Part shown: positions 20,179-36,050 of the stretch, one piece after another | Layout of the letters: each line of letters opens with the position of its first letter | Position numbering within the stretch: position 1 is the stretch's first letter | Assembly (NCBI GenBank): GCA_963717365.1 | Contig: OY970327.1 | Location: 991,752 to 1,055,751 of the forward strand | Length of the DNA stretch: 64,000 nucleotides | Reading direction: 5' to 3' | Origin: Candidatus Saccharimonadia bacterium | GTDB lineage: Bacteria > Patescibacteriota > Saccharimonadia > Saccharimonadales > 2-12-FULL-41-12 | Notes under the pieces: generated by a model | Told to the model about the DNA's origin: nothing | Seen by the model: only the letters and a program-made list of their open reading frames with translations | Database searches by the model: none | Made by a program: the position numbers and the translations under genes

Positions 20179-20239
20179 GGCTATATAGTAGCATTATTAC
20201 AAGTTCACTGGCTCTCCTGTGACTCAAGGACTAGAAAAT

Positions 20240-21349
20240 TCACCTGGCAATTTGCAGAAGGGCAGAAAGGGCAGCCCCGTCTAAGCAGGCATTTGGACTG
20301 TAATCTTTAGTCATGAGCAGACGCGACTTTTGTCCTAAGGTATGTTCTAGTATCTGTTGGATTCTTTCCCCGTATTCTGGAAACTTAAAGGCGCCGCCGT
20401 GGCCAACTACAACTGTCGCCCGAGATTTCAAATCAAAGTTAAATGAATTGGCAACGCCCTGCGCAGTGTGTGCTACTAGTACAGCCGAATCGTTGTATAG
20501 GTGCGTCACTCGATCGTCGCCCGTTTTGTACAGGTCTTCAAGTTGCTTTCCTGTAAGTGCTTCGCCGGTATTACGTAACCATATATCTTCAATCCCGGCT
20601 TTACTCCCAGCAATATTCTCGATACAGGTATACTCATTACCTAAAAATCCACAGACTTTCTGCTGCTCTTCAGGATTGAGCTTAGGAATTACCGCTATAT
20701 GACCTGGTTCGGCGGCATACAGTTCATTACCATATCCAGCAAGAGCAGCCCCGCCTAGTCCGCTACCGTTAATAATATAGATCACATTGGTAGTTCGCGG
20801 TTCTTCTCTTTTTGCCTGGATCGTGCCGCTGATCAATCCTGATACGGCATCATTTCTGACAACTGCAAGAGTTGGAAATAAATTAGCAAAGTCATTATCG
20901 TAAATAGCATTAAGTTCGGACAAAAAGATTTGTACATTTTGGCCAGCCACAGGAGATGAGTCTACGATCGGCCCGGCATAAGAAATACCTACCGGGAAGC
21001 CGTGCCCAGTTGCGTAGTGAGAGATTTCCTCAAGCATAGACAAATAGCCTACCCCGTCTGTACTTTTTAGTTCATTTTTTTCTTGCTCATCAAAAACTAG
21101 TCTATCGCCAGATAGCCAGGCAAGCCCGGAAACTACTGTATCTCCACCAATATCCACACAAACTATCGGTTCTTCCTGCAGTTTTTTAAGTGCTAACATC
21201 ACGAGGGCTTCTTCTGGATCAAAATTCATGACAGGTGTCGCTCGTATGCTTTCCATCGTAAACTTGGCTAGTTGCGCGGAATATAAAGGCGGCACATCAA
21301 ATCGTGTAAGGGGAATAATTAACTCGGGTTCACGCTCGTAACTATGCAT
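20240..21349 (-). CDS. ROK-family / glucokinase-like sugar kinase (ASKHA fold)
   Basis: VCVDIGGDTVVSG, RNDAVSG, INGSGLGGAAL and EPGHIAV...VCGFLGNEYTCIEN (ROK Zn-motif-like). Confidence 0.6.
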   Translation of the reverse strand: MHSYEREPELIIPLTRFDVPPLYSAQLAKFTMESIRATPVMNFDPEEALVMLALKKLQEEPIVCVDIGGDTVVSGLAWLSGDRLVFDEQEKNELKSTDGVGYLSMLEEISHYATGHGFPVGISYAGPIVDSSPVAGQNVQIFLSELNAIYDNDFANLFPTLAVVRNDAVSGLISGTIQAKREEPRTTNVIYIINGSGLGGAALAGYGNELYAAEPGHIAVIPKLNPEEQQKVCGFLGNEYTCIENIAGSKAGIEDIWLRNTGEALTGKQLEDLYKTGDDRVTHLYNDSAVLVAHTAQGVANSFNFDLKSRATVVVGHGGAFKFPEYGERIQQILEHTLGQKSRLLMTKDYSPNACLDGAALSALLQIAR

Positions 21350-21445
21350 GCTATTAATTACAGATCAAGGTGGACAAAAAGTCAAATCGTCGGTAGAAAC
21401 GGTTAAACAAATATATTGATGCACAAGTAAGCTATACTACAAACA

Positions 21446-22360
21446 ATGATTAAGGCCGAACACCTCAAGAAACAATATAAGAAAAAAGTAGCTGTCGACA
21501 ATATTTCATTTGAAGTTGCCACCGGTAAAGTAACTGGCTTTCTGGGACCTAACGGCGCCGGTAAATCTACTACCATGCGACTGATGCTAGGCTTAGATAA
21601 CGGCAGCGGTAACACAACTTTTGACGGCAAACCGCTGCATGACTATGCCCGGCTGTCTGGGGTAGTCGGCATTCTACTTGAAGCAAAAGCATTTCATCCA
21701 ACTCGTTCGGCCCGCAATCACTTGCGTATTTTAGCGGCGGCTGGCGGCGTACCAAATTCTCGGGTAGACGAAGTACTTAGCATCGTTGGCCTGTCAGAGG
21801 TTGCCAAGAAAAAACCTGGGAAATTCTCATTGGGGATGAGCCAGCGACTAGGGATAGCAGCTGCCATACTGGGACAGCCAAAATATTTGATCCTAGATGA
21901 ACCAGCCAATGGGCTTGATCCTGAAGGTATAGCCTGGCTCAGGCAATTCCTTGAGCATTATGCCGACCAAGGCAATACGGTATTCGTATCAAGTCACTTA
22001 CTGAGTGAAATGGCATTGATGGCTGATAACGTGGTGGTAATAGGCAAGGGCAAACTCATAGCTGATACCTCTATAAGCGCTCTGGTATCGGGCAGTGCGC
22101 ATTCTGGTGTTTTTGTGCGCAGCGGCAAATTATCCCAATTGGAACGACTTATTAAGCAGCATGACCTGGTGTATCAAAAAGTAAACGACGGCCTAAAAAT
22201 AAGTGGTGCTAGTACCGACAAAGTTGGTAAATGGGCCTTCGAAAGTGGTATTCCAATTCTTGAACTAACTAATCAAAGTGCCTCACTGGAAGATGTTTTC
22301 TTAGAAATCACCGAAGGTGAAGAAGAATACCGTGCTCAAACTACAAAAGGAAAGAAATAA
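21446..22360 (+). CDS. ABC transporter ATP-binding protein
   Basis: GPNGAGKST, FSLGMSQRL and LILDEPANGLD. TATACT at 21433-21438 lies 7 nt before the ATG. Confidence 0.9.
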   Translation: MIKAEHLKKQYKKKVAVDNISFEVATGKVTGFLGPNGAGKSTTMRLMLGLDNGSGNTTFDGKPLHDYARLSGVVGILLEAKAFHPTRSARNHLRILAAAGGVPNSRVDEVLSIVGLSEVAKKKPGKFSLGMSQRLGIAAAILGQPKYLILDEPANGLDPEGIAWLRQFLEHYADQGNTVFVSSHLLSEMALMADNVVVIGKGKLIADTSISALVSGSAHSGVFVRSGKLSQLERLIKQHDLVYQKVNDGLKISGASTDKVGKWAFESGIPILELTNQSASLEDVFLEITEGEEEYRAQTTKGKK

Positions 22361-22362
22361 TC

Positions 22363-23115
22363 ATGGGCGCCACTATTAAAGCTGAATTCCTCAAACTTTT
22401 CACCATCCGTTCAACCTATATCATGATTATTTTATCGATTATTTTAATCACCGTATTCGCGTTTTACTTTGAAGGCTACAAAGGCAATACCGGCTCGCCT
22501 GCTTCGACACTAGCCCCAGAGGCGTTGCAAGAAATAGTTTCAAATTCTGCCGGACTAACGGTAACATTCGCCAGTATTATATCCATATTATTCATGGCTC
22601 ACGAGTATCGTTATAACACCATTATGTATACCTTAACTTCCAATGTCAGACGGGGTAGGGTGTTGTTTGCTAAAGTTGCTACCATCATTCTTTTTAGCAT
22701 CGGCTACGGACTGCTGGCTGTAGGACTAGCAATCGGCTGTTATATGGCCGGCTTATCATTACGTGATGCCACCTTGCCACCTCAGAGTTTTGAAGTGTTG
22801 GAGCATGTTGGAAAAGTAGTCTTTTACTTCATGGGTTACGCCTTGATTGGCTTGCTGCTAGCAATGCTGACCCGAAGCGTGGTAATGGCAATTGGAACGC
22901 TGTTAATCTTTCCAATTACCTTCGAGCCACTACTCAGCATAATCCTTAAAGAAGATGCTAAATACTTGCCGTTTACTGCGCTGGATAGCACCGTAGGGGC
23001 GTCAATGATGCCCAATGTACTACCGCCAGGCGATGCCATAACGGTTACTTGCGCCTACCTGGCGGCAATCATGTTAGTTACTTGGCTGCTTTTTGTCCGC
23101 CGCGACGCAAACTAA
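22363..23115 (+). CDS. ABC-2 family permease
   Basis: 250 aa with 6 hydrophobic segments. Starts 3 nt after the ATPase stop. Confidence 0.7.
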   Translation: MGATIKAEFLKLFTIRSTYIMIILSIILITVFAFYFEGYKGNTGSPASTLAPEALQEIVSNSAGLTVTFASIISILFMAHEYRYNTIMYTLTSNVRRGRVLFAKVATIILFSIGYGLLAVGLAIGCYMAGLSLRDATLPPQSFEVLEHVGKVVFYFMGYALIGLLLAMLTRSVVMAIGTLLIFPITFEPLLSIILKEDAKYLPFTALDSTVGASMMPNVLPPGDAITVTCAYLAAIMLVTWLLFVRRDAN

Positions 23116-23162
23116 AATTTATTACGCATTAAATACATAACTCATATGCTTAAATAATAGGC

Positions 23163-23669
23163 ATGGCAAATTATCGTGGGCATATCGTAGGAGGACTAGC
23201 TGCCGGTGCTGTCTATGCCACGCTGCTGGCTAAAGTGCCGATTGAGCGTTTCGCGGAAAGCGCCGGCTTGCTGGAAGACTGGCAGCCATTGGCCGCATTG
23301 TTTGTACTTAGCATGTTGTTCGCGCTGTTTCCCGATGTTGATACCAACAGCAAAGGTCAGGATATATTCATCGGTTTGGCTTTCACGGTTGATGTGCTGC
23401 TAATTGTCGGCGGCAGTTATCAGGCCGCTGCCTATTTGGGGCTTATCGCTATGCTGCCAATTATCACCCATCACCGCGGCTGGACCCACAGTAAATTCGC
23501 CATGATTCTAGTGCCACTACCACTGTTACTGATACCTTATACTCATAATGACAAAGTACTGCCAATATCGATTGTCTTGTACGGCGCGGCGGTCGCCGGC
23601 TACTTTAGCCATTTACTGTTGGATGGGCTGATCTGGAAGCGGATCCGTGTGAAGGGCGGCCGCAGATAG
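23163..23669 (+). CDS. Membrane-bound metal-dependent hydrolase (YdjM/DUF457-like)
   Basis: MANYRGH..., LFPDVDT and HHRGWTHS motifs in a polytopic membrane protein. Confidence 0.65.
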   Translation: MANYRGHIVGGLAAGAVYATLLAKVPIERFAESAGLLEDWQPLAALFVLSMLFALFPDVDTNSKGQDIFIGLAFTVDVLLIVGGSYQAAAYLGLIAMLPIITHHRGWTHSKFAMILVPLPLLLIPYTHNDKVLPISIVLYGAAVAGYFSHLLLDGLIWKRIRVKGGRR

Positions 23670-23683
23670 GCCTACTGCCAACT

Positions 23684-24649
23684 TTAGCGGTGAAGTATTT
23701 CGTTAACCGTCGCTGCAACACGGTACGGGTTGAACTGCTCGTCGTTGTGAGTGGCATGAGGTTTGGCGGAACTAGGATCGAAACGCTGCCCATTCTTCTG
23801 CTTAATAGGGATCTCCCAAGATGCACCCGCTTGAGTTACCTTATTTACGGTTGATTCGAGAACTTTGTCGCTATAAAGCTTATCCTCGGCGTAACTTACA
23901 ATAGCTAAGCTAGCAATTTTACTTTTTAGCAAGCGCTTATAATCAACTTGGTTTTTAGCCAGGTGGCGAACTTCACGCAGTGTTCGTGGGATATTGGCAG
24001 TAAAGTTCTTGACGCCTGCCTTTAACATTTCAGGTGAATCAGGGAAATCTTTCGGATTGTCTTTTCCTTCGGATTTAGCGACAGCCAAGAAGCGTTTGCC
24101 AATAGTACGAATTTTTTCTTTACTAAATCCGGCTGGAGCTAGCATTATAACGTTGGCATCGTCAAAATAGGTCTTACCTTGATCGGCGGCAATCTCCTGC
24201 ATTTTATCAAAAATAAGGCTGCCATAACTGTGGGTAACGATGTCTACGTTTTCTATGCCCTCGGCTTCTATAACAGCGAGGTAATTCATAGCCTGCGAAT
24301 ATGTCGCATCCTTTTTATTCGTGCTATCTTTGAGAATTTTTTTACGATTCTGGTCAGGCATAATTACATCGTTGCCCAACCCAGCGAGTTCTGCCGCAAA
24401 TGGTGCTTTTGAAACAATTCCTTCGGTAAAACCAGGGATATACAAAACTGGCTTTTCGCCGGCGCCTTCATTCAGGCGTACGTAAGGCAGTTGCTCTCCT
24501 GATGAATCGGGGATTTCAGCGTATCGCCAGTTGTGGGCTATTTCATCAGCGATTATATCGCCATGACGATCACGAAGCTGAGTTTCATATTCAGCACTAA
24601 TAAAAGTGGGTTCTTGTTGGTGAGTTAATTGTTCTTTTGTTTTTGACAT
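23684..24649 (-). CDS. Alpha/beta-hydrolase-like protein (module copy 1)
   Basis: PVLYIPGFTEG... and nucleophile elbow VTHSYGS. The track start 24688 overlaps a consensus promoter, so ATG 24649 (MSKTKEQL) is preferred. Confidence 0.6.
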   Translation of the reverse strand: MSKTKEQLTHQQEPTFISAEYETQLRDRHGDIIADEIAHNWRYAEIPDSSGEQLPYVRLNEGAGEKPVLYIPGFTEGIVSKAPFAAELAGLGNDVIMPDQNRKKILKDSTNKKDATYSQAMNYLAVIEAEGIENVDIVTHSYGSLIFDKMQEIAADQGKTYFDDANVIMLAPAGFSKEKIRTIGKRFLAVAKSEGKDNPKDFPDSPEMLKAGVKNFTANIPRTLREVRHLAKNQVDYKRLLKSKIASLAIVSYAEDKLYSDKVLESTVNKVTQAGASWEIPIKQKNGQRFDPSSAKPHATHNDEQFNPYRVAATVNEILHR

Positions 24650-24659
24650 TTCAGTACAC

Positions 24660-24688
24660 ATATTATCATGTATATGATAAAAAGTCAA
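24660..24688 (-). promoter_or_regulatory. Sigma70-like promoter for the hydrolase gene
   Basis: On the minus strand: TTGACT (24688-24683), a 17-nt spacer, then TAATAT (24665-24660). The ATG lies 10 nt downstream. Confidence 0.5.
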
Positions 24689-24812
24689 GTATATTGATTT
24701 AAATCTATAAACTATTACACGGTCAAGGTAGTGCCCATACTTGTGTATTGTTGATAAATAATGTATTATGTCATCAAATTATTTATATGCAACTCACGTT
24801 GTAGGAGTATAC

Positions 24813-25577
24813 GTGTTACAACCGGTTATTCGGATTGAAAATGAGCGACTTGAAACGCCTTTGGTTGAGTTCCATAACCCTTTAACAGGGAGCAATATTG
24901 GAGTGGTGGGCATGATTCACGTGGCAAAACGACCCTACTATAAGTTTATTAGTGACTATACTGCTATTCAGCAAGAGCGGGGGGCTACCGTACATTTCGA
25001 AAGAGTCCGTTTATCTAACGCTGAGGAGCTAGGGTTAGTAGAGCCTGAAATCTCCCAAAGTGTTAGACGGTTTCGCGCCGCCATTACCCGAGTACCTGAA
25101 GTTATGGCAGTATCGTTAAATTTAACGAGTCAACGTGAAGGCATAGATTATCAACCAGAATGGCAAAATCATGACAGTAGTGACTTGGAACTAGTCAGTA
25201 TGCTAGGCCATTCAGCAGTTAACCGCGTCGCTGCAATTAACCGTGTTGTAAGTATGCTAGATTGTGTCGTCCCGCTGCAATACAAGCGCCGGGCGCTTAA
25301 CCTTGGGTTTCAACTATTGTCACAGATTGATCTAGAACAGGCAAAAAAGACCAAAGCTAAACAACATTTTGACTCTGTAGTGATTGATCATAGAAATAAT
25401 ATTGCGCTTGCCGCGGTGGAGAAACTGTTAACAGACCAGCCTGATAGTAATATTGTTATGCTGTGGGGCTCGGCGCATCTCCCCGGTATTGGGGCGGGTT
25501 TACAGAAACTGGGTTACGCGGCTACCCGCAGATTTTGGCTGCCGGCATTTTCTACTGCTAATGTAATTAAAAGCTAA
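24813..25577 (+). CDS. TIKI/TraB/GumN-superfamily-like protein (module copy 1)
   Basis: Two GxxH motifs (VVGMIHV, WGSAHLPGIG) plus DHRNN. Clear paralog of 27228..27986. GTG 24813 has AGGAG 6 nt upstream and matches the paralog's N-terminus; the track start is ATG 24768. Confidence 0.5.
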   Translation: MLQPVIRIENERLETPLVEFHNPLTGSNIGVVGMIHVAKRPYYKFISDYTAIQQERGATVHFERVRLSNAEELGLVEPEISQSVRRFRAAITRVPEVMAVSLNLTSQREGIDYQPEWQNHDSSDLELVSMLGHSAVNRVAAINRVVSMLDCVVPLQYKRRALNLGFQLLSQIDLEQAKKTKAKQHFDSVVIDHRNNIALAAVEKLLTDQPDSNIVMLWGSAHLPGIGAGLQKLGYAATRRFWLPAFSTANVIKS

Positions 25578-25817
25578 CAGTTAAGAAATAATATTCAAAC
25601 TATCTATTGCTTTATTAGCAAATTAATTATAATATATGACTAATCGTTGAGATAAGATGATTCTTAACTCCGAGGTACTTTGACAAGCAAACACAAGGTG
25701 AGGGTTAAGGGCATACGTAATTATGCTTTTGTTCTTCATCTTGTGTGACTCCAATGAGAAACATAGCCAAGCCATGCTTGGGCGACATTAGTCTAGTCGC
25801 GTGGAGGGAAAGCAGTC

Positions 25818-26132
25818 ATGTTCTCACGTATTCGTTCGAAGGTCGCCGATGAGTCGGGTTTTCTGCTGGTCGGTGGCTTCCTGGGCCTGGTGCTCTACGT
25901 CGTGGTCTTCCTGGTGTTCATCAACAACTGGGCGGCAAGTCCTGTGCCGGGCGGCAACGACAACTTCATCTACGGGCTACTCCAGGGCATCTTCGCCGCA
26001 CCTGCCTTCATCGTCAGTCTCTTTGACCCCAAGATCGCGATCTACCAAGTCGGCAACATCGGCGGCTGGTACGACTTCGGCTTCCTCGTCGGCATCGGCG
26101 CGATCTTCGGCGGCGCAAGCAACGCAAGCTGA
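25818..26132 (+). CDS. Small polytopic membrane protein encoded by anomalously GC-rich DNA
   Basis: 104 aa with 3 hydrophobic segments. GGAGGG (25803-25808) lies 9 nt upstream. About four of five codons end in G/C by hand count. Overlapping alternative frames are judged artefacts of the GC content. Confidence 0.65.
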   Translation: MFSRIRSKVADESGFLLVGGFLGLVLYVVVFLVFINNWAASPVPGGNDNFIYGLLQGIFAAPAFIVSLFDPKIAIYQVGNIGGWYDFGFLVGIGAIFGGASNAS

Positions 26133-26367
26133 GCGGCGCAAGCCACGGCCTGAATTAGCAGAGTGAAAAGTGATAAGTGGATTGCCAGCCAAATAGATGG
26201 TAACTACGTGTTACTGCTCTACCCCCTATTTCTCTTGTAGCCTGCTTGTCATTTTTCACTTCATAAATGCGTGTTTATGCTGATGAGTCCAAAAGGACGA
26301 AAGTGGAACAGTCAGTTTCTCCTTTTTATGCATAAAATATGCTGTGCCAAGAAACTGCAATTTAGAA

Positions 26368-27105
26368 CTACACATTGTCGTACAACCAGGCTTTGCCGAC
26401 GGTTGCGTAGTGGCCGAGTCTAGTATATCTAATGGTAGGATTGATATCGGCTGCGCGGGTGACGTCTACGAGTTCTCTTTGGTATCGTGACGGGATTAGC
26501 TCATCTGTCAATGACGCAATCATAGTAACTTCTTTTCCAACGAGCGCATCTAGATGATTTATTGGAGCCATATCATACCAAGCAGCTTCGACATCGGCTA
26601 AATCATAACCTTTTTGCTCGATACCGGTTCTAATATGTTGGGTTCTTGACCCATGCCACATGCTTTTAGCAAGACTACTGCCTGAAACAAATATGGTAGC
26701 ACTATCAAAGTCTGTAAATCTGCCGCTTACAGCCGCGAAGGCGGCGTTCCCCAGACTAGTTGCGATAAGGTTTATTCTTAAGTAGTCATTAGACTTCCTA
26801 ATGGTCTCAAGGTCATCTGCGATAGTTTCTTTGGCGTAGGCATAAGACTCTGCCACCAGATCGACATCAGGTTTGAGTATTTCATCATGGAAATAGTAGG
26901 CGAGTACAGCATTTCCTTTATTGGTCAGTCTCTTTATTAATTTTTCATATGGAACGCCACCCCCATGCCACGGTGGGAACAATACGGATAAATTTTGTCC
27001 CTCGGAATTTACCAACTTACGATCGGTGATGGCTTGGTCTGGAGTATATTCCTGAGAGAAAATATCTCCCTGTAGTCTATTTCTGACCATAAATTTGTCG
27101 AGCAT
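26368..27105 (-). CDS. Alpha/beta-hydrolase-like protein (module copy 2)
   Basis: 245 aa. LFPPWHGGG, nucleophile-elbow-like IATSLGN, and a late LGHY. Confidence 0.5.
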   Translation of the reverse strand: MLDKFMVRNRLQGDIFSQEYTPDQAITDRKLVNSEGQNLSVLFPPWHGGGVPYEKLIKRLTNKGNAVLAYYFHDEILKPDVDLVAESYAYAKETIADDLETIRKSNDYLRINLIATSLGNAAFAAVSGRFTDFDSATIFVSGSSLAKSMWHGSRTQHIRTGIEQKGYDLADVEAAWYDMAPINHLDALVGKEVTMIASLTDELIPSRYQRELVDVTRAADINPTIRYTRLGHYATVGKAWLYDNV

Positions 27106-27227
27106 AAGTAAAGGAAATTATATCATATTATCTTATATAATGCTAGTAACGTCAATTGCGGTACTTACTCTGGTCGTATCATTTTGTATATTTTGTAACA
27201 GCGTCAAATATCTGCTATATTAACAAA

Positions 27228-27986
27228 ATGAGAAATACAATTAATCGTGTGGTTGACGGGGTATTTCAGACGCCGTTATGTGAATTTGATCATCCGGCAA
27301 CAGGCAGTAGTATTGGTTTTGCGGGGATGGTTCACATCGGTGATCCACAATATTTTGATGTAGTTGAGGATTATGTAACACGAAGAGAAGTAGCCGGATC
27401 TTTAGTGCATTATGAAAGAATGATGCCGCCTACGGCTGAAGAGTTAGTAGAATCAGGTTTAGATCCAGCACTGGTCGAACGTTTTGGGACGGGGGTTGAG
27501 GGGACTTTTAACTTCTTGGGAAAAAGACTTGGATTACGTTTTCAGCTTGACAGTATGCAATACGGTGAAGCTTGGGAAAATCATGATATTCCAAGATTAG
27601 AGTTGATGCGACTCCTCGGCGCTAAAGGTGTAGAACGGTTTACCGAAAAAGGCGAAAAACTCGTAGACCTAGAAGATAAGATCGGCTCTGATCTGACTCT
27701 AAAGATTATGTCAGGTACTTTACGCCATATATCTCTTGTAAGTATGTTGAGCAAACTATCTCCTAAAAATCGGCGTGAAGATCGGATAGTAACCGACCGA
27801 CGTAACGAGGTCGCCCTTTTGGCTATTGATGAAGCCCTGCGACGAGAGCCAGAACGTGACATCACATTACTATGGGGCGCAATGCATCTTCCGGGCATTG
27901 GCAAAGGCCTACGTCAACGGGGTTACAAACTGAATAGTACTCAGTGGCTAAATGCCTTTACCCTGCCTGCTAAGGTTCGTAAGTAA
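27228..27986 (+). CDS. TIKI/TraB/GumN-superfamily-like protein (module copy 2)
   Basis: FAGMVHIG, TDRRNE and LWGAMHLPGIG. The track start 27156 is TTG; ATG 27228 aligns with the paralog. Confidence 0.5.
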   Translation: MRNTINRVVDGVFQTPLCEFDHPATGSSIGFAGMVHIGDPQYFDVVEDYVTRREVAGSLVHYERMMPPTAEELVESGLDPALVERFGTGVEGTFNFLGKRLGLRFQLDSMQYGEAWENHDIPRLELMRLLGAKGVERFTEKGEKLVDLEDKIGSDLTLKIMSGTLRHISLVSMLSKLSPKNRREDRIVTDRRNEVALLAIDEALRREPERDITLLWGAMHLPGIGKGLRQRGYKLNSTQWLNAFTLPAKVRK

Positions 27987-28182
27987 CTAAGCTGTTGAGG
28001 ATTTTGGAGTTATGTAAATAGTAACGTATGAAATCCAGAATTGTAGGAGCAAGTTTGATGGAGTGGAATCGCATCAAGGCTGAATTTATAGGTATCTGGG
28101 AGATTTTCAGAGAGATAAGCACCGCGTCTGGCGTACAGCTAGGTGAGTTGCATTGAACCGTGGGTTATAATTCTCTTTGATC

Positions 28183-28752
28183 ATGGCAAAAGCTAACTTA
28201 AGAGATTTTGATTACCAAAAAGTAGGCAAGCTAGATGCTGACATGTGGCGAGCCTATTACAACCACAAGTTTCTTAGTCTATTCAAGCTATTATTTTTGC
28301 TGATAAAGCAGCAACTAGGTCTGAATTGGTTGACTACGCTCCGGCTAGCTTATTATTCGGCATGGGCAGCTGCCGATTATCGCATCAACAGAAAAAATGT
28401 TAATCGTACTCGGGTGCTCAAAAACATAACAAAATTTTATAAATTGATTTCTGACAATGCTACCGAAGCGTTTAATTTCAACAAAACTGCTGAACTGGAA
28501 TTGGAGTGGTGGGATATACATCGGGGTTCTAAAGAAAATAACGAAGAACTTGAACTGTCTATTGCTGCTGCGGCAGCTGTAATATACAATCTAAACCCGG
28601 CCCTTCTCAAGGAATATGCAAATTATCGAGCTGAAGCAATGATTCTGCCAAGGCATCAAGCCAACAGTGACCATAATAGAACCGACTGGGTAAAAATCCA
28701 AGAAATGACAATTAAGTCATGGGGTGCCTTACACGCGGCTGTACAGAAATAG
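28183..28752 (+). CDS. Hypothetical helical protein
   Basis: 189 aa from ATG 28183 (the track start 28177 is TTG). No family recognised. Confidence 0.5.
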   Translation: MAKANLRDFDYQKVGKLDADMWRAYYNHKFLSLFKLLFLLIKQQLGLNWLTTLRLAYYSAWAAADYRINRKNVNRTRVLKNITKFYKLISDNATEAFNFNKTAELELEWWDIHRGSKENNEELELSIAAAAAVIYNLNPALLKEYANYRAEAMILPRHQANSDHNRTDWVKIQEMTIKSWGALHAAVQK

Positions 28753-28991
28753 AAACGGTTCTAAAGAATTCAATGCGGTTAAGTTATTGGTGGACTTGAG
28801 TGGAATGTTTTGGAACCAAGTTTACGGCACACTATCCGAATGGTATAAACTCTTTGGTAATTCAATGTCAGAACGGGCGATAGAAGTACCACAATAAGTT
28901 AGAACCAACAATTTTATTTAACAATAGCGGTAGCTATTATCTTACAGTTAGAGGATACTGAGATTAAATAATTGTTAATAGGAGAAAATCA

Positions 28992-29567
28992 ATGCTAGGA
29001 ACCTTAGTAACTTGGTTTAAAGCTCTTTCAATTGCAGGTAAAACAGGCGTAGTTGCTGCTACTACAGTAGTCGGGGGAACTGGGCTTGCCGCTGTAAGTC
29101 CTGAACCCCCAGCCCAAAGTACTCAGAGTGCCCAATGTAGTTCTGCTACAAGTCAAACAGAGGAGATTAAAGTAGTTGATTATCCAATTAACGAATTCGA
29201 GGATTCGAAGTTAGACAAAGGTAAATCTGAAATTCGTACAGCTGGAGTAAGTGGCGAGAACAAACTTACATATACTGTAACTGAGTACACCCCTACAAAC
29301 TGCCAGCCGAACACTAAGTTATTAGACAAAGAGGAAGTTATTAAAAAGACTACAACTCAAGTAACCGCCATCGGTACATATGTCGCTCCGCCACCCCCAC
29401 CTGCTCCAAAACCTATTACTAATTGTGCTCCTGGATATAGTCCATGCGTACCTAATGTATCTTATGATTTAAATTGTCCAGATATTGGATTCTCGGTAAC
29501 AGTTACAGGCTCTGACCCCCACGGTTTCGATAGGGACGGCGATGGATACGGGTGTGAATCTTACTAA
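28992..29567 (+). CDS. Secreted G5-domain protein with C-terminal Excalibur-like Ca-binding motif
   Basis: N-terminal anchor; G5-like segment KGKSEIRTAGVSGENKLTYTVTEY...TQVTAIGT; PPPPPAP linker; C-terminal DPHGFDRDGDGYGCE. Confidence 0.65.
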   Translation: MLGTLVTWFKALSIAGKTGVVAATTVVGGTGLAAVSPEPPAQSTQSAQCSSATSQTEEIKVVDYPINEFEDSKLDKGKSEIRTAGVSGENKLTYTVTEYTPTNCQPNTKLLDKEEVIKKTTTQVTAIGTYVAPPPPPAPKPITNCAPGYSPCVPNVSYDLNCPDIGFSVTVTGSDPHGFDRDGDGYGCESY

Positions 29568-29722
29568 ATAGCATAAGCGTTTTCACTTAATATGAAAGGT
29601 TGTTATTATATGTATATGGCGATGAAAATATTTACAGGTACAGCTCCAACTCAAAAGCCTATTACTGTAAAAACAAATATAAATAAAATTAAAAACGCAA
29701 TTAAATCAGGCAAGACTAAGTC

Positions 29723-30724
29723 TTAGTCCATAACATCTGCGAACGATAAACCATGCTTATCCTTAAGCTGCTGGTAGTTTACTGCCGCAAAACCAATTGA
29801 ATAAGTTGTAGTAAGAGGTACAATCACAGCCGCAGGTCGTTCTAATGGGTCTTGCGAGGGTAAGGTCATAGGCAAAGTACCTATCGGATAAGTACGGTAC
29901 CCGTGCACCATCCCTATTACAAGTCCACTTTCGATGTCAAAAATTGGCCCACCGCTATTACCAGGGTTAAATGCCATAGTAAATTCATACTGAAAAACAT
30001 CTGTATGATGCCGTGTATTAACAACTCCATAATCGCCACGTAAATAAATTTGTGAGACTGTGGGGGTGCCATCGGGCATTATCACTAACCCTTGAAGGGG
30101 ATATCCGAGTACTCCTGCTTTTGAACCTATGTCTAGGGGTATCGCCTTAAATGATAGATGTTGTGCGGGATTCATAATCCAATCGCCGTTATGCTTGTAA
30201 AAACCATCTGGTAGATAGAAAATTGCACCGTCAATATTAGGAAATGTAAATAAATTTTCATTTATTTTAGGTTCTAAGTAAGCAGTATGGCAGTAACCAT
30301 TCTCATCTCGATTTACAAATAAATATACGTCTCCATCTTGATGATGAGCTCCTGGATTATCCGGAGTTTGAGTGTTAAATATGCAATGCGAGCAAGTCAT
30401 CATACGGTTTTTACCTATTAGATAACCGGTTCCCAGTGGATATTGTTCTATATTATTTGCACCGGCCTGTCTAATGCGAGTTATATGGTATACGCAAGAT
30501 TTCGCATAGGATACCACTTCTTTAAATGATAAAAATGAATCAGGTTTAGGCACCACAGGAGGAAGTGGGCTCTTCTTTAGCTCCTTAGTTACAGACGGCG
30601 TTGCACGGTTTGTGACACTTTTTTTAGATAATTTCTTAGACTTTTGAGCTTTCCGTATTCCTGCTTTTTGTTTCCGCGCTTTTCTGTCTTTCTTCTGTAC
30701 CATATGTTTATAATTATAGTCCAT
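29723..30724 (-). CDS. Trypsin-like (S1) serine protease with ~60-aa Lys/Arg-rich N-terminal tail
   Basis: TCSHCIF (His), GNSGGPIF (Ser). N-terminus KKDRKARKQKAGIRKAQKSKKLSKK. No signal peptide or TM helix seen. Confidence 0.75.
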   Translation of the reverse strand: MDYNYKHMVQKKDRKARKQKAGIRKAQKSKKLSKKSVTNRATPSVTKELKKSPLPPVVPKPDSFLSFKEVVSYAKSCVYHITRIRQAGANNIEQYPLGTGYLIGKNRMMTCSHCIFNTQTPDNPGAHHQDGDVYLFVNRDENGYCHTAYLEPKINENLFTFPNIDGAIFYLPDGFYKHNGDWIMNPAQHLSFKAIPLDIGSKAGVLGYPLQGLVIMPDGTPTVSQIYLRGDYGVVNTRHHTDVFQYEFTMAFNPGNSGGPIFDIESGLVIGMVHGYRTYPIGTLPMTLPSQDPLERPAAVIVPLTTTYSIGFAAVNYQQLKDKHGLSFADVMD

Positions 30725-30798
30725 CCACTAAATTCGATATGTTGTAAAAGATAAATTATAAAAATATAGTTGAGCGGTATAAATTTTTGGATTAATAA

Positions 30799-32037
30799 TT
30801 ATAACTCCCTAATACTCCCAAAAGCCACGCGTTTCAGGATAATATCCTGCATATTTGCCATAGAAGCCGGTACCAGGGTAAATTCGCCGTATCTATCATT
30901 TATGTTATCGGCGGCGTAAGCCAGGGAGCGCGTATCAAGCCTAGTATCGTCGAATAGGCCTAATTGCCGCGGAGTAGCCGGCTGTAGGTAGTATACCGTG
31001 ACTCCTATATTGGTAACTCTAGCTGGTGGCGTAACCTGGTTCATAAGCTTTTGGGCGTGGATGTATATGTCTTGCGTGGAATAAATTGGGGACTTAGTTT
31101 TTTTGCCCTGCGACCAATACTGCCGATTTTCAAAACTTAACCATAAATGAATGCCCCACGCCGTGGAATCATGCTTCCTAAGCCTGCGTCCTGTTTTTTC
31201 GCATAACTTCATAAGTAGCCTGGAAAGCTTCTCTGGGTCGCTGGTTTTATCCCCTAATGCGTACTGTTGCCCGAAACTCTTTCGTCCAAAGTCTACGGCG
31301 TCTATTTCGTGGCCCCGCAGGCGCAAATACCAATAGTAGCCAACAATACTTTTAAAAACCTGTTTTCGGAGTACGTCCACATTAGCATCTAAAAACTGGA
31401 GGGGCGTATATATCCCCGCCATGTTTAGCCTAGCTTTATATCTGACATTTATACCTGGCAAATCAAGCAAGGTAAGGCTCTCATAAGTTTCCCGGATTGT
31501 TTTGCCGGTAATTATGTCCAAGCCATCCGGCTTATTAAGGCCAGCGGCTACTTTTGCTAGGAACCGGTTAGGGGCGATACCTATATTAACCGTAACGTAA
31601 TCACCTAACGCATTTTTTACATCTTGTTTTATCTCTTTTGCCACTTCCAATAGACTTTTACCCCGCTTAATTGCTAGAGAGTGGCTGAAGTCGATAACGA
31701 ATTCGTCTACTGATTTAGGTGTTACGGTATCCGTGTAGTTAAGAAGGAGTTTTTTAAATCGCCTGTGGGCATCAAAGTACTTTTCTGGGTCGGGAACCAT
31801 AATAATAGCTTCCCTGGAGAGCAGCCGGGCCTCTCTGACGTTTACACCTAATTTAATGCCCAATGCCTTGGCTTCATAAGAAGACGCGATTACCATGCCT
31901 CTAGGACTGTCATACGCGGCAATCGCTACCGGTTTATTGCGTATAAGCGGATTCGCCTGCTGTTCGATAATGGCAAAACAGCTGTTGAGGTCAATATGCA
32001 GTATCAAGGGGTCATTATAGTTAAGTGGCAAGTCCAT
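30799..32037 (-). CDS. Y-family DNA polymerase (DinB/UmuC-like)
   Basis: ILHIDLNSCFAIIEQQANPLIRNKPVAIAA...MVIASSYEAKALGIKLG, and later the little-finger region. Confidence 0.85.
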   Translation of the reverse strand: MDLPLNYNDPLILHIDLNSCFAIIEQQANPLIRNKPVAIAAYDSPRGMVIASSYEAKALGIKLGVNVREARLLSREAIIMVPDPEKYFDAHRRFKKLLLNYTDTVTPKSVDEFVIDFSHSLAIKRGKSLLEVAKEIKQDVKNALGDYVTVNIGIAPNRFLAKVAAGLNKPDGLDIITGKTIRETYESLTLLDLPGINVRYKARLNMAGIYTPLQFLDANVDVLRKQVFKSIVGYYWYLRLRGHEIDAVDFGRKSFGQQYALGDKTSDPEKLSRLLMKLCEKTGRRLRKHDSTAWGIHLWLSFENRQYWSQGKKTKSPIYSTQDIYIHAQKLMNQVTPPARVTNIGVTVYYLQPATPRQLGLFDDTRLDTRSLAYAADNINDRYGEFTLVPASMANMQDIILKRVAFGSIREL

Positions 32038-32287
32038 CGCTTACTGCCTCCAATGTCCAATGTAGATTACTGGTATTGAGGTTTAAACGAAACCATATAG
32101 TATTCTCCTTATCTACTAATTCATAAATATGGTGCAATACCCGCCCCTCATTAACTGTGTGATGATAGCCAATTTTACCTACGGTATAATCTTTATTTTG
32201 CCAGTATATTAGATGAGGTAGTGCTTTCCGTTTTTTCACTGAGTAGTACATTACTACTGATACTTCTTCGTTAATTTTCTCTCTCAT
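32021..32287 (-). CDS. Small protein translationally coupled to the Y-family polymerase (candidate accessory subunit)
   Basis: 88 aa from ATG 32287 (MREKINEE; AAGGGG 8 nt upstream), or 102 aa from 32329. Its 3' end overlaps the polymerase start by 17 nt. Confidence 0.45.
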   Translation of the reverse strand: MREKINEEVSVVMYYSVKKRKALPHLIYWQNKDYTVGKIGYHHTVNEGRVLHHIYELVDKENTIWFRLNLNTSNLHWTLEAVSDGLAT

Positions 32288-32312
32288 AGGAAGACCCCTT
32301 ATAATTATTAAT

Positions 32313-33005
32313 ATGTGCGGCAGATACACCCTCCATAAAAAGGCTGATAATATAGCAAAACGTTATAAGGTTGCTTCAATCCCTAAGGATATACATGAGA
32401 ATTACAACGTAGCGCCCGGACAGCGAATGCCGGTGATTACCGAAGACGAAGACGGGAAGCGAAAAATTGAAGTTATGAAATGGGGCTTAATCCCTGTATG
32501 GGCAAAGGACCCGAAAATAGGCTACAAACTCATTAACGCCCGGGATGACACCATCTTCGAAAAACCAATGTGGCGCAGTGTAATACTTAAAAAGCGGTGC
32601 CTTATTCCCGCTGATGGCTTTTTCGAATGGAAGAAGCTACCAGGAGGTACAAAAGTGCGAAAACAGCCGTTTTATATTCGCCCCAAACAACAAGACTTAT
32701 TTAGCTTTGCAGGCGTCTGGGAAACCTGGAAAGATGCTGAGGGCTTAGAATGGAAGACATATTCAATTATTACCACTGACCCCAATAAAGAAATGAAGCA
32801 GGTGCATAACCGCATGCCCGTAATTTTGCACCAAGATGATGAGTCCTCTTGGCTTTCGCCTTCTCATAATAATGACCGAGGTGCCATAGAGGCCCTACTG
32901 CGTCCCTGGGAAGACAATGGACTTGAACTTTTCGAGGTAAGCAGTGACGTGAACGCTTCCCGGAATAATGAGGCAAAGCTCATCTATCCGATTAACTCTC
33001 AGTGA
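32313..33005 (+). CDS. SOS-response-associated peptidase (SRAP/YedK-like abasic-site sensor)
   Basis: Begins MCGRYTL (Cys2), then NVAPGQ, MKWGLIP, INARDDT and NRMPVIL. TATAAT at 32300-32305 lies 7 nt before the ATG. Confidence 0.9.
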   Translation: MCGRYTLHKKADNIAKRYKVASIPKDIHENYNVAPGQRMPVITEDEDGKRKIEVMKWGLIPVWAKDPKIGYKLINARDDTIFEKPMWRSVILKKRCLIPADGFFEWKKLPGGTKVRKQPFYIRPKQQDLFSFAGVWETWKDAEGLEWKTYSIITTDPNKEMKQVHNRMPVILHQDDESSWLSPSHNNDRGAIEALLRPWEDNGLELFEVSSDVNASRNNEAKLIYPINSQ

Positions 33006-33330
33006 GTATGCTGTACGATGTAAATAAGCCTGTACGGAGGAAGGTATAACCAGCCCATACATTGCTGGGTCTGATTATAGGACTATGTGTTCAAGTAAAC
33101 AATTGCGTGTAATAGTTACTTACTCACCTAACCCACTTACAGCAGTACACTTAACTAGCCACATATTATTATTTTACCCCTGTAAACTATGTTAAGTAAG
33201 TGCCACTAAGAATCGCGTAAGGTGGCAGTCCTTCCTTCCCGTGCGATATACAGAGGTAGCGGAGAATTATACAGCGGGTACTCCCCAGCTTTTAACGAAT
33301 ACCTACTTACCACCAGACCGAAGGTTGTCA

Positions 33331-33858
33331 CTAGCACTCACGGGCGTAGCAAGTATCCGGCCGGTTTTCAGTTAAAGGGTCTGATGGCATAAACATGACG
33401 TAAATAAAAATAAAAATTAATATTAGTACAAGTAAACCTCCTGCAAAAGACTTAACACCCTGTACGGTAAGTGGTGAGGACGTGTTCGTAGCCTCTCTGT
33501 AGCTTCTTCCTAGCCCCGATACAGGATAACTATCATCTTTAATGTGTTGAATTGCTATTTGGATATACTCCCTAGCCTTTAACGGGTCATCTTCGGCAAA
33601 TGCTATAACGCCTTTAAGTTCGAATATCCGCGCCCTAAATAAGCTAACTTTCTGTGATTCCTGAAAGCTTAGAGCGGTTGCACGTTGCGAGGAATAATCT
33701 AAATAATTCTCCTTATGTCGAACATGCACCAAATCCTGCTCATAATGACGGACTAATTGTTTAAATGTCGTAATATCTTTCTTTCTTAAGTTTGCTGAGT
33801 CGTACTGCCGCTCTAGTAATTGGATACTAGAAGTAATTTTATCCAGTTTTTCGTCCAT
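33331..33858 (-). CDS. Hypothetical protein, helical N-domain + C-terminal TM helix
   Basis: 175 aa. C-terminal GGLLVLILIFIFIYVMFM. No family recognised. Confidence 0.45.
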   Translation of the reverse strand: MDEKLDKITSSIQLLERQYDSANLRKKDITTFKQLVRHYEQDLVHVRHKENYLDYSSQRATALSFQESQKVSLFRARIFELKGVIAFAEDDPLKAREYIQIAIQHIKDDSYPVSGLGRSYREATNTSSPLTVQGVKSFAGGLLVLILIFIFIYVMFMPSDPLTENRPDTCYAREC

Positions 33859-33944
33859 AAATACTCCATTTAAGTAAGCGGGTAATTAAAAAGCCCGCCG
33901 CTGGGCGATAGCCGGAGCTACCAATAACCGTTTCCAGTTACTAC

Positions 33945-33988
33945 AATCGCGAAAAAGTACCCGAACGACGAGCTGTTCTTTCGCGATT
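33945..33988. repeat. Perfect 10-bp inverted repeat in the recombinase upstream region
   Basis: AATCGCGAAA (33945-33954), 24 nt, then TTTCGCGATT (33979-33988). Confidence 0.8.
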
Positions 33989-34271
33989 GATTTGTTGACC
34001 ATGCCAATGCTTTCACAATGGTTTAGGCCTGAGCTGTTTAACAGCTTGGTTTGAATTATAAAGCACTTGAATTAAAATAAGGTAATACGGAGAAACGTAA
34101 AGACACTCTACTCGGGGAGAACAACTGTTTAGTAGCGGTTAAAGTACCCTAGCCATAGGAGAAAGGCTTAATCTCCCAAACGGAAGAACAGGCAATGCGT
34201 TTAGCACCTAAAGTATCCAACTAATCGCAAAAAGTTGTAGTTTAGGTACTTTTTGTTTTCCGGGGGCTTAG

Positions 34272-34472
34272 GTGTATACGAAATCACCCATTTCAGTTAA
34301 AGAGGCAAGACGGATTCTTGGAATCACTGGTAAGGGGTTATCAGACGATGCAATTAGGCAACTCATAGCACATATTGATGTATTAACAGATGTAGTAATT
34401 ACTCAATATAATGATTCCAAAAACCAGAGTTCTATTGATATTTTAAATGACGAAGCTCATACTAAAGAATAA
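34272..34472 (+). CDS. Small HTH-like protein (possible excisionase/RDF or regulator)
   Basis: 66 aa with a GTG start. SVKEARRILGITGKGLSDDAIRQLI resembles a helix-turn-helix. The stop lies 1 nt before the recombinase ATG. Confidence 0.4.
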   Translation: MYTKSPISVKEARRILGITGKGLSDDAIRQLIAHIDVLTDVVITQYNDSKNQSSIDILNDEAHTKE

Positions 34473-34473
34473 T

Positions 34474-36018
34474 ATGTTTAAAGCTGTAATATATACCCGC
34501 GTATCTACTGACGAACAAGCTAGGAATGGTCTAAGTCTAAAGGGTCAAGAGGACGCCACACGGGATTATTGTCTACGTGAAGGTATAGAGGTTGCTATGG
34601 TATTTTGTGATGCTGGAGAATCTGCAAAGACTGCTAATAGGCCACAATTAATAGCCTCAATGGCGTACTGTACCGAACATTACAAGGAAATTGACTTCTA
34701 TTTGGTGTGGAAGATGGATAGACTCGCTCGTATGGCCTACGACACAGCAGTAATTGATGCTAATTTACAAAAGCTTGGGATTCAGCTTCGTTCAGCTACG
34801 GAGCCAATTACAGATTCTCCTATCGGTTCTCTAACTAAAACCATGTTGGCAGGTTTCGCCCAGTTTGATAATGATGTACGCGCAGAACGTAGTAGTAGTG
34901 GGGTAAAACGGAGAATTGAAGAGGGTGGATGGCCTCATATGGCTCCGTTAGGCTACAGTAATTATACGGATAGTCTTAAGCGGCCAACACTTGTGCAGTC
35001 TAGCCAGGCACCACTTATTACAAGGTGGCTAAAGGAATACTTAAAAGGCGGCTATACGCAAAAGGCTTCAAATCAACTAGCTTGGGATATGGGGATACGC
35101 TCCAAACAGGGCACTCGATTGTCTAATCAGCAAACAATTAATATGCTTCGTAACCCAGTTTATGCAGGTCTGGTAAAATCTAAAATGATTGAATTTCCGG
35201 TTACAGGCCTACACACAGGGTTAATTAGTTACAAAGAACATGAAGCAATAATTAACAAATTGAATAAAAGAAAAAAACAGTTAACTGGGGTCAGTTCTTC
35301 GCAAGATTGGCCATTACGAGGAGGGTTTATAAAATGTGCGGAATGTAAAGAAAATATTACGGGAAGTTCGCCAAAGGGCCGAACAAAACACTACTCTATG
35401 TACCATTGCCCTAAATGCCGCACTAAAACGGTAGGCCATCGCGTGAGCGTATCAAAAGCAACCTTACATAACGAATTTGAAGCTTTATTAGCCTCTGTTA
35501 CGCCATCTGAGGCTGCATTAAAGCTATTTAAATCGCAAGTAATAAAGAAATGGCAGCTTTTAAATAGCGAGAAAAGATTACAGCAGCAGCAAATGCAACT
35601 TACGCTCGAAAAATTAAACCTTAGGAAACAAAAAGTAATTACACTTTTTGTTGATGGTAGCTTATCTTCGGAAGAAAAGGTGGAGCAATCAAATATTATC
35701 CAGTCAGAAATACTTAGAACCGAATTAAAATTAAATGAGGCAAAAGAAGCTGTAATAAGTTCAGATATTCTAATTGACTTCGGTATTAACATGATTCAAA
35801 ACGCTTCAAAACTATGGCGTATATCTAATGCATTAGAACGACAACGCCTACAATTAGCTATTTTTCCCGATGGACTTACATATAACTTTGTATCTGGGTT
35901 TGGAACCATTAAAACTAGTGAAATATATCAGTTAATTAGTCAATCGATATCAATAGATAATCAAAATTCAAGTATGGTGGGGGTGGCTGGAGTTGAACCA
36001 GCTACCAAGTGGTTATGA
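34474..36018 (+). CDS. Large serine recombinase (integrase type)
   Basis: AVIYTRVSTDEQARNGLSLKGQ (catalytic Ser), recombinase domain, Zn ribbon CAECKEN...YHCPKC and a coiled-coil tail. The last 44 nt overlap the tRNA-Met gene. Confidence 0.9.
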   Translation: MFKAVIYTRVSTDEQARNGLSLKGQEDATRDYCLREGIEVAMVFCDAGESAKTANRPQLIASMAYCTEHYKEIDFYLVWKMDRLARMAYDTAVIDANLQKLGIQLRSATEPITDSPIGSLTKTMLAGFAQFDNDVRAERSSSGVKRRIEEGGWPHMAPLGYSNYTDSLKRPTLVQSSQAPLITRWLKEYLKGGYTQKASNQLAWDMGIRSKQGTRLSNQQTINMLRNPVYAGLVKSKMIEFPVTGLHTGLISYKEHEAIINKLNKRKKQLTGVSSSQDWPLRGGFIKCAECKENITGSSPKGRTKHYSMYHCPKCRTKTVGHRVSVSKATLHNEFEALLASVTPSEAALKLFKSQVIKKWQLLNSEKRLQQQQMQLTLEKLNLRKQKVITLFVDGSLSSEEKVEQSNIIQSEILRTELKLNEAKEAVISSDILIDFGINMIQNASKLWRISNALERQRLQLAIFPDGLTYNFVSGFGTIKTSEIYQLISQSISIDNQNSSMVGVAGVEPATKWL

Positions 36019-36050
36019 GCCACCTGCTCTGACCGATGAGCTACACCCCC
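35975..36050 (-). tRNA. tRNA-Met (anticodon CAT; elongator Met versus Ile2 not distinguishable here), CCA encoded
   Basis: Hand-folded cloverleaf: acceptor GGGGGTG/CACCCCC, D arm GCTC-ATCGGTCA-GAGC, anticodon arm GGTGG-CTCATAA-CCACT, variable loop TGGTA, T arm GCTGG-TTCAACT-CCAGC, then A-CCA. Confidence 0.9.

Follow-up and report, generated by a model that had tools for sequence, protein, structure and literature searches.

A probable small mobile element of Saccharibacteria at the 3' end of a tRNA gene, with its attachment site inside the coding end of a large serine recombinase

The stretch of DNA analysed here, called the window in the following, comprises 64,000 nucleotides of a Candidatus Saccharimonadia bacterium (contig OY970327.1, positions 991,752 to 1,055,751). 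It holds a gene for a large serine recombinase (LSR) that runs into the 3' end of a tRNA(CAT) gene on the opposite strand and is preceded by a small open reading frame (ORF), an RNA of the LOOT family and cargo genes, among them a SRAP protein, a Y-family DNA polymerase and a protease (Table 1). A sequence-only reading of this region had proposed an integrated element on the 3' side of the tRNA; the left and right attachment sites (attL, attR) as well as circular and empty relatives agree with this proposal. The three-part recombinase described in that reading was recovered by Pfam: the Resolvase domain (PF00239) was matched above the cut-off with an E-value of 1.6e-28 at residues 13-162 of the 523-aa ORF, the Recombinase domain (PF07508) also above the cut-off with 26.4 bits, and the zinc ribbon (Zn_ribbon_recom, PF13408) with 22.1 bits, slightly below its cut-off of 25.3. 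The cysteine columns of the ribbon were kept in an alignment of 40 sequences, C291 and C312 being invariant and C288 and C315 nearly so. The catalytic residues R9, S11 and Q15 were invariant in alignments of 40 and 53 sequences and are retained in the window protein. Thus, an N-terminal catalytic domain with the serine nucleophile is followed by a Recombinase domain and a zinc ribbon with coiled coil, and the att sites are short with few base pairs identical at the crossover, as in other LSRs. The AlphaFold model of the homolog P0018, a form encoded across the element's own attachment site (attP), had a mean pLDDT of 86, a confident core and long helices at 346-425. At E <= 1e-10, 603 homologs were obtained, largely from Saccharibacteria and other metagenome bins; in cultured phage genomes no near relative of the recombinase was found, the best matches being phage-type large serine integrases at 22-28 % identity.

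The recombinase ORF overlaps the tRNA(CAT) gene by 44 nt, as had been noted before and as was confirmed by ARAGORN and Rfam, and its stop codon TGA (36016-36018) overlaps the anticodon. Two directly oriented copies of a 6-bp core, TGGTGG, bound a segment of 7,187 bp (window 28,788-35,980). The core is the antisense of the CCACCA-3' end of the tRNA (positions 71-76). The last 12 amino acids of the integrated recombinase (GVAGVEPATKWL) are host tRNA DNA right of the core in antisense reading, the M-V before them being encoded across the core. The extended core TGGTGGRNKTG was present in the whole 64 kb at just two positions, 28788 and 35975, from which the length of the element follows. In the window, attL reads ..GTTAAGTTAT / TGGTGG / ACTTGAGTGG.. 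and attR reads ..TTCAAGTA / TGGTGG / GGGTGGCTGG.., while attP of the circular relative L177 reads ..GTCAAACG / TGGTGG / ACTTGAGTAG.. and the empty host site (attB) of the relative L087 reads ..TTCAGGAT / TGGTGG / GGGTGGCTGG... In the alignment the four types exchange partners precisely at TGGTGG and have nothing else in common; the core was shared by all tabulated sites, i.e. 7 attL, 5 attP, 6 attR and 2 attB. The attL region spans 28,788-28,897, and a chromosomal gene for a 191-aa protein (28177..28752) ends directly left of its host arm. The P' arm of the window is identical to that of a circular relative at 29 of 34 positions. The left junction was located by a protein-level match of the recombinase tail and not by DNA alignment; a DNA alignment for attP-like or inverted att-arm sequence at 27.5-31 kb yielded nothing significant, and neither a second tail remnant nor a further core junction was found left of 28788. 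The start at 29568 given by the sequence-only reading has to be corrected, as this position lies about 780 bp inside the element; of its three candidate zones for the left end, the one at 28.75-28.99 kb contains the junction at 28788-28793. Sequence comparison shows the structure of the sites and places the exchange to within 6 bp, with the tRNA preserved and the recombinase C-terminus swapped.

The swapped part was found at attL. A 36-codon frame (LVDLSGMFWNQVYGTLSEWYKLFGNSMSERAIEVPQ, then a stop; 28787..28897) is in frame with the core and matches the recombinase tail of circular L177 at 50 % identity (tblastn E-value 7.8e-9); the same tail piece was present at the left end of six other integrated copies. 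The recombinases of circular contigs lack the tRNA-antisense end and read, after ...KKSNVV, DLSSIFWNQVYEQFSTWYKTFS... up to their stop. In L174, L177 and L182 the ORF passes from ...NVV/LV into a tail with the motif SW(N/K)(Q/R/H), which represents attP. Most of the 120 best homologs had tRNA-antisense tails, i.e. the integrated form, and about ten had a free-form SW(N/K)(Q/R/H) tail. The core is read in the same frame at both attachment sites of the window, so that excision in silico restores an in-frame recombinase of 536 aa. With attP inside the recombinase ORF, the 44-nt overlap with the tRNA is the C-terminus of the integrated state and not the native one. Integration parts the recombinase ORF from its native last 34-35 codons or so, which are left at attL, and the integrated ORF reads into the tRNA antisense strand and stops at the anticodon. 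The first 30 bp or so of the tail, counted from the core, are conserved as DNA (pS = pN = 0.23), which fits a protein-binding arm. For tail codons 12-26, beyond the att site, a pN/pS of 0.53 was obtained, which suggests that the free-form tail is translated and under moderate constraint. As an LSR, the recombinase would catalyse recombination of attP with attB, and excision may depend on a directionality factor. The two C-terminal isoforms may differ in activity, stability or direction, and convergent transcription of the tRNA may damp recombinase expression in the integrated state.

Circular, occupied and empty forms were all encountered among relatives. The contig L177, whose recombinase is 76 % identical to that of the window, has a terminal overlap of 127 nt and closes to a circle of 6,573 bp; L182 has a terminal overlap of 146 nt with one mismatch and closes to 5,071 bp. 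In L174 (recombinase 50 % identical) the first 30 nt equal the last 30 nt, yielding a circle of 6,274 bp, and the polymerase gene is continuous across the circle junction. In six other integrated copies, with elements of 3.8-7.3 kb, a tail remnant at attL likewise goes together with attR; integrated relatives are L081 (3.8 kb), L084 (6.8 kb), L086 and L175 (7.3 kb), L178 and L184/L185 (7.2 kb). In contig L186 the first 111 nt are unrelated DNA, to which the P' arm is joined (attL, 1..228); at the far end the recombinase continues into an identical P' arm (attP, 6522..6638), so integrated and circular (or tandem) forms coexist in that metagenome. Empty sites were present in L087, with an FtsB 79 % identical, and in L088. 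L087 is collinear with the window at 11.2-20.2 kb and 36.0-44.6 kb; its orthologous tRNA immediately precedes ftsB, and PAS/histidine-kinase genes take the place of the recombinase; L088 has an intact tRNA and no recombinase. The segment is thus an insertion relative to these relatives, and a gene order conserved also in recombinase-free genomes, which would have spoken against the original proposal, was not observed. Occupied, empty and circular states, as compared by sequence, exist within the family; they were seen in related elements and hosts and not for this exact copy. Taking the att sites, the displaced tail and the relatives together, we consider it highly probable (roughly 0.85) that window 28,788-35,980 is one integrated copy of a small Saccharibacteria mobile element, whose LSR would recombine an attP contained in the 3' part of its own gene with an attB at the very 3' terminus of the tRNA(CAT) gene. 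With an intact ORF, intact cores and an open in-frame tail, this copy can presumably still excise.

The absence of a direct repeat of the tRNA 3' end, reported already from the sequence alone, held throughout the window: neither a direct nor an inverted copy of the tRNA 3' half was detected in the 64 kb (up to 8 mismatches; local alignment), and a displaced tRNA fragment was likewise missing from the 36 kb of window to the left of the recombinase and from about 60 related loci, of which up to 10 kb each were covered. With a crossover in the last six tRNA nucleotides the tRNA is rebuilt from host DNA and core and nothing is duplicated, which accounts for the lack of a repeat here and at all related loci. 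This also bears out the earlier remark that a missing repeat fits serine recombination with a short crossover, as attL and attR share just TGGTGG. A classical tRNA island, with crossover in the anticodon or T-loop, a 3' half supplied by the element and a displaced fragment either decayed or beyond the window, would correspond to the usual design of tyrosine integrases (PMC4383910) and to the stop of the ORF exactly at the anticodon loop. It is hardly tenable, since the attP forms share with the tRNA just TGGTGG and the expected fragment was missing in all these loci; in place of a tyrosine integrase (PF00589) with a displaced fragment, a serine recombinase was present. The T-loop signature, TTGAA at the first four occupied and TCGAA at two empty sites, had been considered as the mark of an element-supplied 3' half and was rejected, because L184 is occupied and yet has TCGAA, and attP lacks the T-arm. 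The recombinase could also be the invertase of an invertible segment near the tRNA, as the tRNA and element of L084, L086 and L175 are oppositely oriented to ftsB in comparison to the window. This is scarcely credible: the att sites are direct and not inverted in the window and in all relatives, circular products exist, and the protein of 514 aa with C-terminal domains has the full LSR architecture and not that of an invertase. The direct att sites also settle the check for an invertible segment that the sequence-only reading had proposed against itself. In L084, L086 and L175 ftsB lies beside attL, on the 3' side of the tRNA, in the window, L081 and L172 beside the 5' end of the tRNA; the core genes beyond ftsB are inverted between relatives, so that rearrangement breakpoints coincide with the tRNA/element locus. 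L084 has in addition, at 3541..3570, a 30-nt displaced 3' end of an initiator tRNA-Met (CCA, acceptor stem, T-arm), 150 nt from the intact gene (3314..3391). It looks like the scar of a different, classical integration near ftsB that leaves a tRNA fragment; it was the only fragment found in related loci and stems from another tRNA.

The extent and the state of the element were questioned as well. At the evolutionary distance of L087 and L088, their comparison bounds the difference just to 20.2-36.0 kb; L087 lacks an equivalent of window 20.2-35.97 kb and has PAS/histidine-kinase genes ahead of its tRNA, and the mobile unit could be this whole window segment of about 15.8 kb with the recombinase at its right edge. 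Such a unit is quite improbable, as attL, together with the P' arm and the matching in-frame tail, is located at 28788, no further tail remnant or core junction lies to the left, the composition is normal at 20-27 kb, and the circular relatives have 5-6.6 kb; moreover, differences in gene content are expected for L087 with only about 75 % protein identity. A fixed, immobile remnant, whose recombinase is kept for another role or has not yet decayed, is a less remote alternative, but still unlikely. Saccharibacteria genomes are small and seldom show active elements, and the exact protein occurs on one contig only. Yet the ORF is undamaged and retains every invariant catalytic residue, both cores are intact, the P' arm has the above similarity to that of a circular relative, the displaced tail is open and in frame, and sister elements occur as free circles in metagenomes. 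A mobile element with its left end at 28788 remains the preferred explanation, against which a number of points have to be weighed. The data for this genome comprise the assembled sequence of one strain, and excision of this copy is a presumption; the identical recombinase protein (P0001) is recorded from that single contig. The attP and attB used for comparison stem from relatives 50-79 % identical and not from this element or host, and the circular contigs could reflect tandem copies instead of free circles. The crossover dinucleotide can be placed no more finely than within the 6-bp TGGTGG. From host to host the left arm of attB shows no conservation, hence the enzyme would recognise chiefly the tRNA side, an unusual behaviour among serine integrases. 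A pN/pS of 0.53 stands for moderate constraint only, and the tail helix of P0018 was predicted at low confidence (pLDDT 50-70), so its packing is not inferable. Finally, comparison with Pfam, PHROG and PDB revealed no similarity of the conserved 66-aa ORF to known directionality factors.

Table 1. Features of the integrated element and its target tRNA gene, and LOOT RNAs of related elements (window coordinates unless a contig is named)
Feature	Position	Strand	Basis or remark
Host arm of attL, original tRNA 3' flank between the stop of the 191-aa gene and the core	28753..28787		Sequence left of the core unrelated in every locus, right side conserved
attL core TGGTGG, left direct-repeat copy holding the crossover	28788..28793	+	Pattern search, four-way alignment
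P' arm and displaced recombinase coding end	28794..28897	+	Translation; homology to L177 tail
G5-domain protein, 191 aa, C-terminal DRDGDGYGCE motif (G5/Excalibur-like)	28992..29567	+	Pfam G5, E 1.4e-6
Trypsin-like serine protease, basic N-terminal tail	29723..30724	-	Pfam Trypsin_2, E 1.1e-8
Y-family DNA polymerase	30799..32037	-	Pfam IMS, E 1.8e-31, and IMS_C
Small ORF coupled to polymerase, 102 aa as listed	32021..32329	-	ORF list; no family match
SRAP (SOS-response-associated peptidase) protein	32313..33005	+	Pfam SRAP, E 6.5e-77
175-aa protein, C-terminal transmembrane segment	33331..33858	-	ORF list; no family match
LOOT RNA (Rfam RF03000)	33907..34029	-	77.8 bits, gathering score 46.4
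Conserved 66-aa ORF	34272..34472	+	9 loci
Large serine recombinase, integrated-state form, 514 aa	34474..36018	+	Pfam
attR core TGGTGG	35975..35980	+	Pattern search, att alignments
tRNA(CAT), integration target, attB right arm; intact, host-derived except for the shared core	35975..36050	-	ARAGORN; Rfam 68.7 bits; orthologs at L087/L088 empty sites
LOOT RNA in L172	9349..9487	-	
LOOT RNA in L170	3585..3689	-	
LOOT RNA in L186	3263..3381	+	
LOOT RNA in L180	1456..1568	-	

The genes left of the recombinase, named from the sequence alone as SRAP, Y-family polymerase and S1-type protease, were confirmed by Pfam matches. The polymerase has a 46 %-identical homolog on circular L174, where the SRAP gene in the same position is 63 % identical, a 96-aa ORF takes the place of the polymerase-coupled ORF and a 208-aa ORF has the position and orientation of the 175-aa ORF. 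The gene order of L174, polymerase, small ORF, SRAP, ORF, small ORF and recombinase, equals that of window 30.8-36.0 kb. This order, kept on a circular relative at 46 %, 63 % and 50 % identity of polymerase, SRAP and recombinase, identifies the damage-tolerance cassette as genuine mobile cargo. The polymerase-coupled ORF is 79 % identical over 28 aa to an ORF beside the polymerase of L178, and circular L177 has an ORF that matches the C-terminal 48 aa of the G5 protein at 73 % identity. The GC content was 0.407 over 28.0-35.97 kb versus 0.449 and 0.435 in the flanks, and a tetranucleotide deviation (z = 3.2-4.6) was present solely in 4-kb windows covering about 27-36 kb; the higher AT content estimated by eye was thus borne out, and a lack of compositional deviation cannot be held against the element. 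A promoter/terminator scan gave counts not above chance. In Pfam and PHROG scans neither a replication gene nor a packaging-hijack gene, as expected for phage satellites of the PICI type, was recognised in the window element. The cargo of sister elements included a Pycsar pair (PycTM and cyclase; L172 6917..8205), SocA/Panacea-domain proteins (L182 4284..4820, L186 1038..1667), a small Terminase_2-like ORF (L177 114..491), DUF5681 (L081 and L186) and a pair of 720-aa and 457-aa proteins (L084, L086), which hints at defence genes and possibly phage-assisted transfer. With regard to phage satellites, the Terminase_2-like and DUF5681 ORFs are a lead for the family and not for the window element. 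Outside of the element, the 8.5 kb or so at window 20200..28750 are of normal composition and without counterpart in L087. They hold a second ABC transporter pair, hydrolases and paralogous ORFs of 269 and 276 aa (24768..25577, 27156..27986) and may be older flexible DNA beside the same tRNA.

The two long non-coding gaps pointed out before, 33006-33330 and 33859-34271, exist, and the latter contains the LOOT RNA. This RNA shares the strand of the 175-aa ORF and precedes it by 48 nt; a terminator-like hairpin at the 3' end of the RNA indicates that LOOT may be a small RNA or a leader/attenuator. In the elements, LOOT lies 20-55 nt upstream of a small same-strand ORF, often for a membrane protein (the next gene was checked in all except L180); no match was present in the chromosomal flanks or elsewhere in the window. 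The 66-aa ORF, whose end 1 nt before the recombinase ATG was verified, is 40-52 % identical in nine loci and always abuts the recombinase start. It had no Pfam, PHROG or PDB match and is a candidate directionality factor or regulator.

Nearly all of 40 homologs with 33-77 % identity end in xVGxxG(F/I/V/L)EPxTxxL, which is the antisense translation of the tRNA acceptor stem, T-arm and anticodon stem. A profile scan with one genome per species yielded at least 80 distant relatives at 24-39 % identity; among the matches listed were Acidobacteriota, Bacteroidota, Myxococcota, Planctomycetota, Verrucomicrobiota, Patescibacteria and other phyla. For about 55 of the 80 matches listed the ORF converges on and enters a tRNA 3' end, and the genes entered comprised Glu, Lys, Ala, Arg, Met, Leu, Phe, Ile, Asn, Val, His and Ser tRNAs and one tmRNA. 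Four IMG/VR proviruses share the arrangement of an ORF running into a tRNA. It is possible, though doubtful at present, that an LSR clade across many phyla targets tRNA/tmRNA 3' ends with attP inside the ORF, and that each integration or excision toggles between two C-terminal isoforms, a free one with a conserved amphipathic SWNQ-type tail and an integrated one with a tRNA-antisense peptide. Such a switch might be a built-in control of directionality or expression, the free form integrating and the integrated form excising, possibly with the small upstream ORF, and these elements might be where the orphan LOOT RNA naturally belongs. Several observations on the targets and on other subgroups were made in addition. 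In L178 a group I intron (RF00028, 72 bits; 10134..10361, minus strand) resides in the anticodon loop of the recombinase-associated tRNA(CAT), a tRNA missed by ARAGORN, and in the homologs P0010, P0012 and P0020 the recombinase ORF continues into the intron. In L170 (7170..7230) and L171 (1590..1651) the sequence after the core resembles a tRNA up to and including the T-arm, its stem changes being compensatory, and is unrelated from there on; both contigs, which are independent, end at the same base, 33 nt past the recombinase stop. Another viral LSR subgroup in IMG/VR (L091, L093, L094, L098-L105) has no adjacent tRNA; nearly all of its proteins end in ...AA or ...A before the stop, which recalls degradation-tag-like C-termini.

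Elements of this design challenge the rule that tyrosine integrases use tRNA genes and serine integrases use protein genes, often breaking them. Island-finding software seeks a displaced tRNA fragment, and as these elements leave none, they would be missed. Att sites placed within 6 bp, together with the natural panel of attP, attB, attL and attR, are engineering parts for Saccharibacteria, a group with very few genetic tools, and serine integrases aimed at the universal tRNA end could become integration tools that need no landing pad. The exchange of the C-terminus could control direction, alone or alongside a separate directionality factor. Circles of 4-7 kb move modules for translesion synthesis, SRAP, Pycsar and toxin-antitoxin-like functions among episymbionts with tiny genomes, and the orphan LOOT RNA gains a genetic context.

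By one account, tRNA genes are not among the known targets of serine integrases (PMC4383910). These enzymes insert within genes, often disrupting them, and the known targets are protein-coding or intergenic (PMC5704250); the largest survey of these enzymes makes no mention of tRNA (PMC10083194). Among 937 tRNA-island elements of the tycheposon preprint, 27 had a large serine recombinase (bioRxiv 10.1101/2020.12.28.424599). Compared by description, tycheposons of Prochlorococcus are likewise small cargo elements at tRNA genes of streamlined genomes, with islands growing beside the tRNA, and some are satellite-like with terS, but they have mostly tyrosine recombinases, partial-tRNA flanks and a different host phylum. 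The systems of phiC31, Bxb1, A118, TP901-1 and TndX resemble the window element in the order Resolvase, Recombinase, zinc ribbon and coiled coil, in an integrase gene adjoining attP, and in short att sites with tiny crossover identity and no long direct repeats. The window element departs from these phage and ICE (integrative and conjugative element) integrases in using the CCA-3' terminus of a tRNA gene as its target, in an attP embedded in the integrase ORF itself and in a host-side left arm of attB that shows no conservation. Tyrosine-integrase islands (Islander type, P4-like) also insert at the 3' side of tRNA or tmRNA genes of many identities, with the integrase beside a regenerated, functional tRNA. 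The enzyme belongs here to another superfamily, and no displaced tRNA fragment is left because the identity block has 6 bp, versus tens of bp in those islands. Coding sequences containing attP, so that integration alters a protein, occur in the SSV1-type integrases and in the integration-dependent immunity of mycobacteriophages; these are tyrosine integrases, and the int gene is split or the repressor truncated, whereas the serine integrase described here trades just its last 34 aa or so for a tRNA-antisense peptide. In SCCmec, the Ccr recombinases, also LSRs, insert at the extreme 3' end of the housekeeping gene rlmH without inactivating it. That element is far larger, and its internal recombinase genes are unaltered by integration; here the target is a tRNA and not a protein gene, and the recombinase end is altered. 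As an integrative element with a serine recombinase, the window element is of a known kind. Within the literature searched, the new features are the tRNA CCA-end as target, the attP within the recombinase ORF and the small circular Saccharibacteria elements with LOOT RNA.

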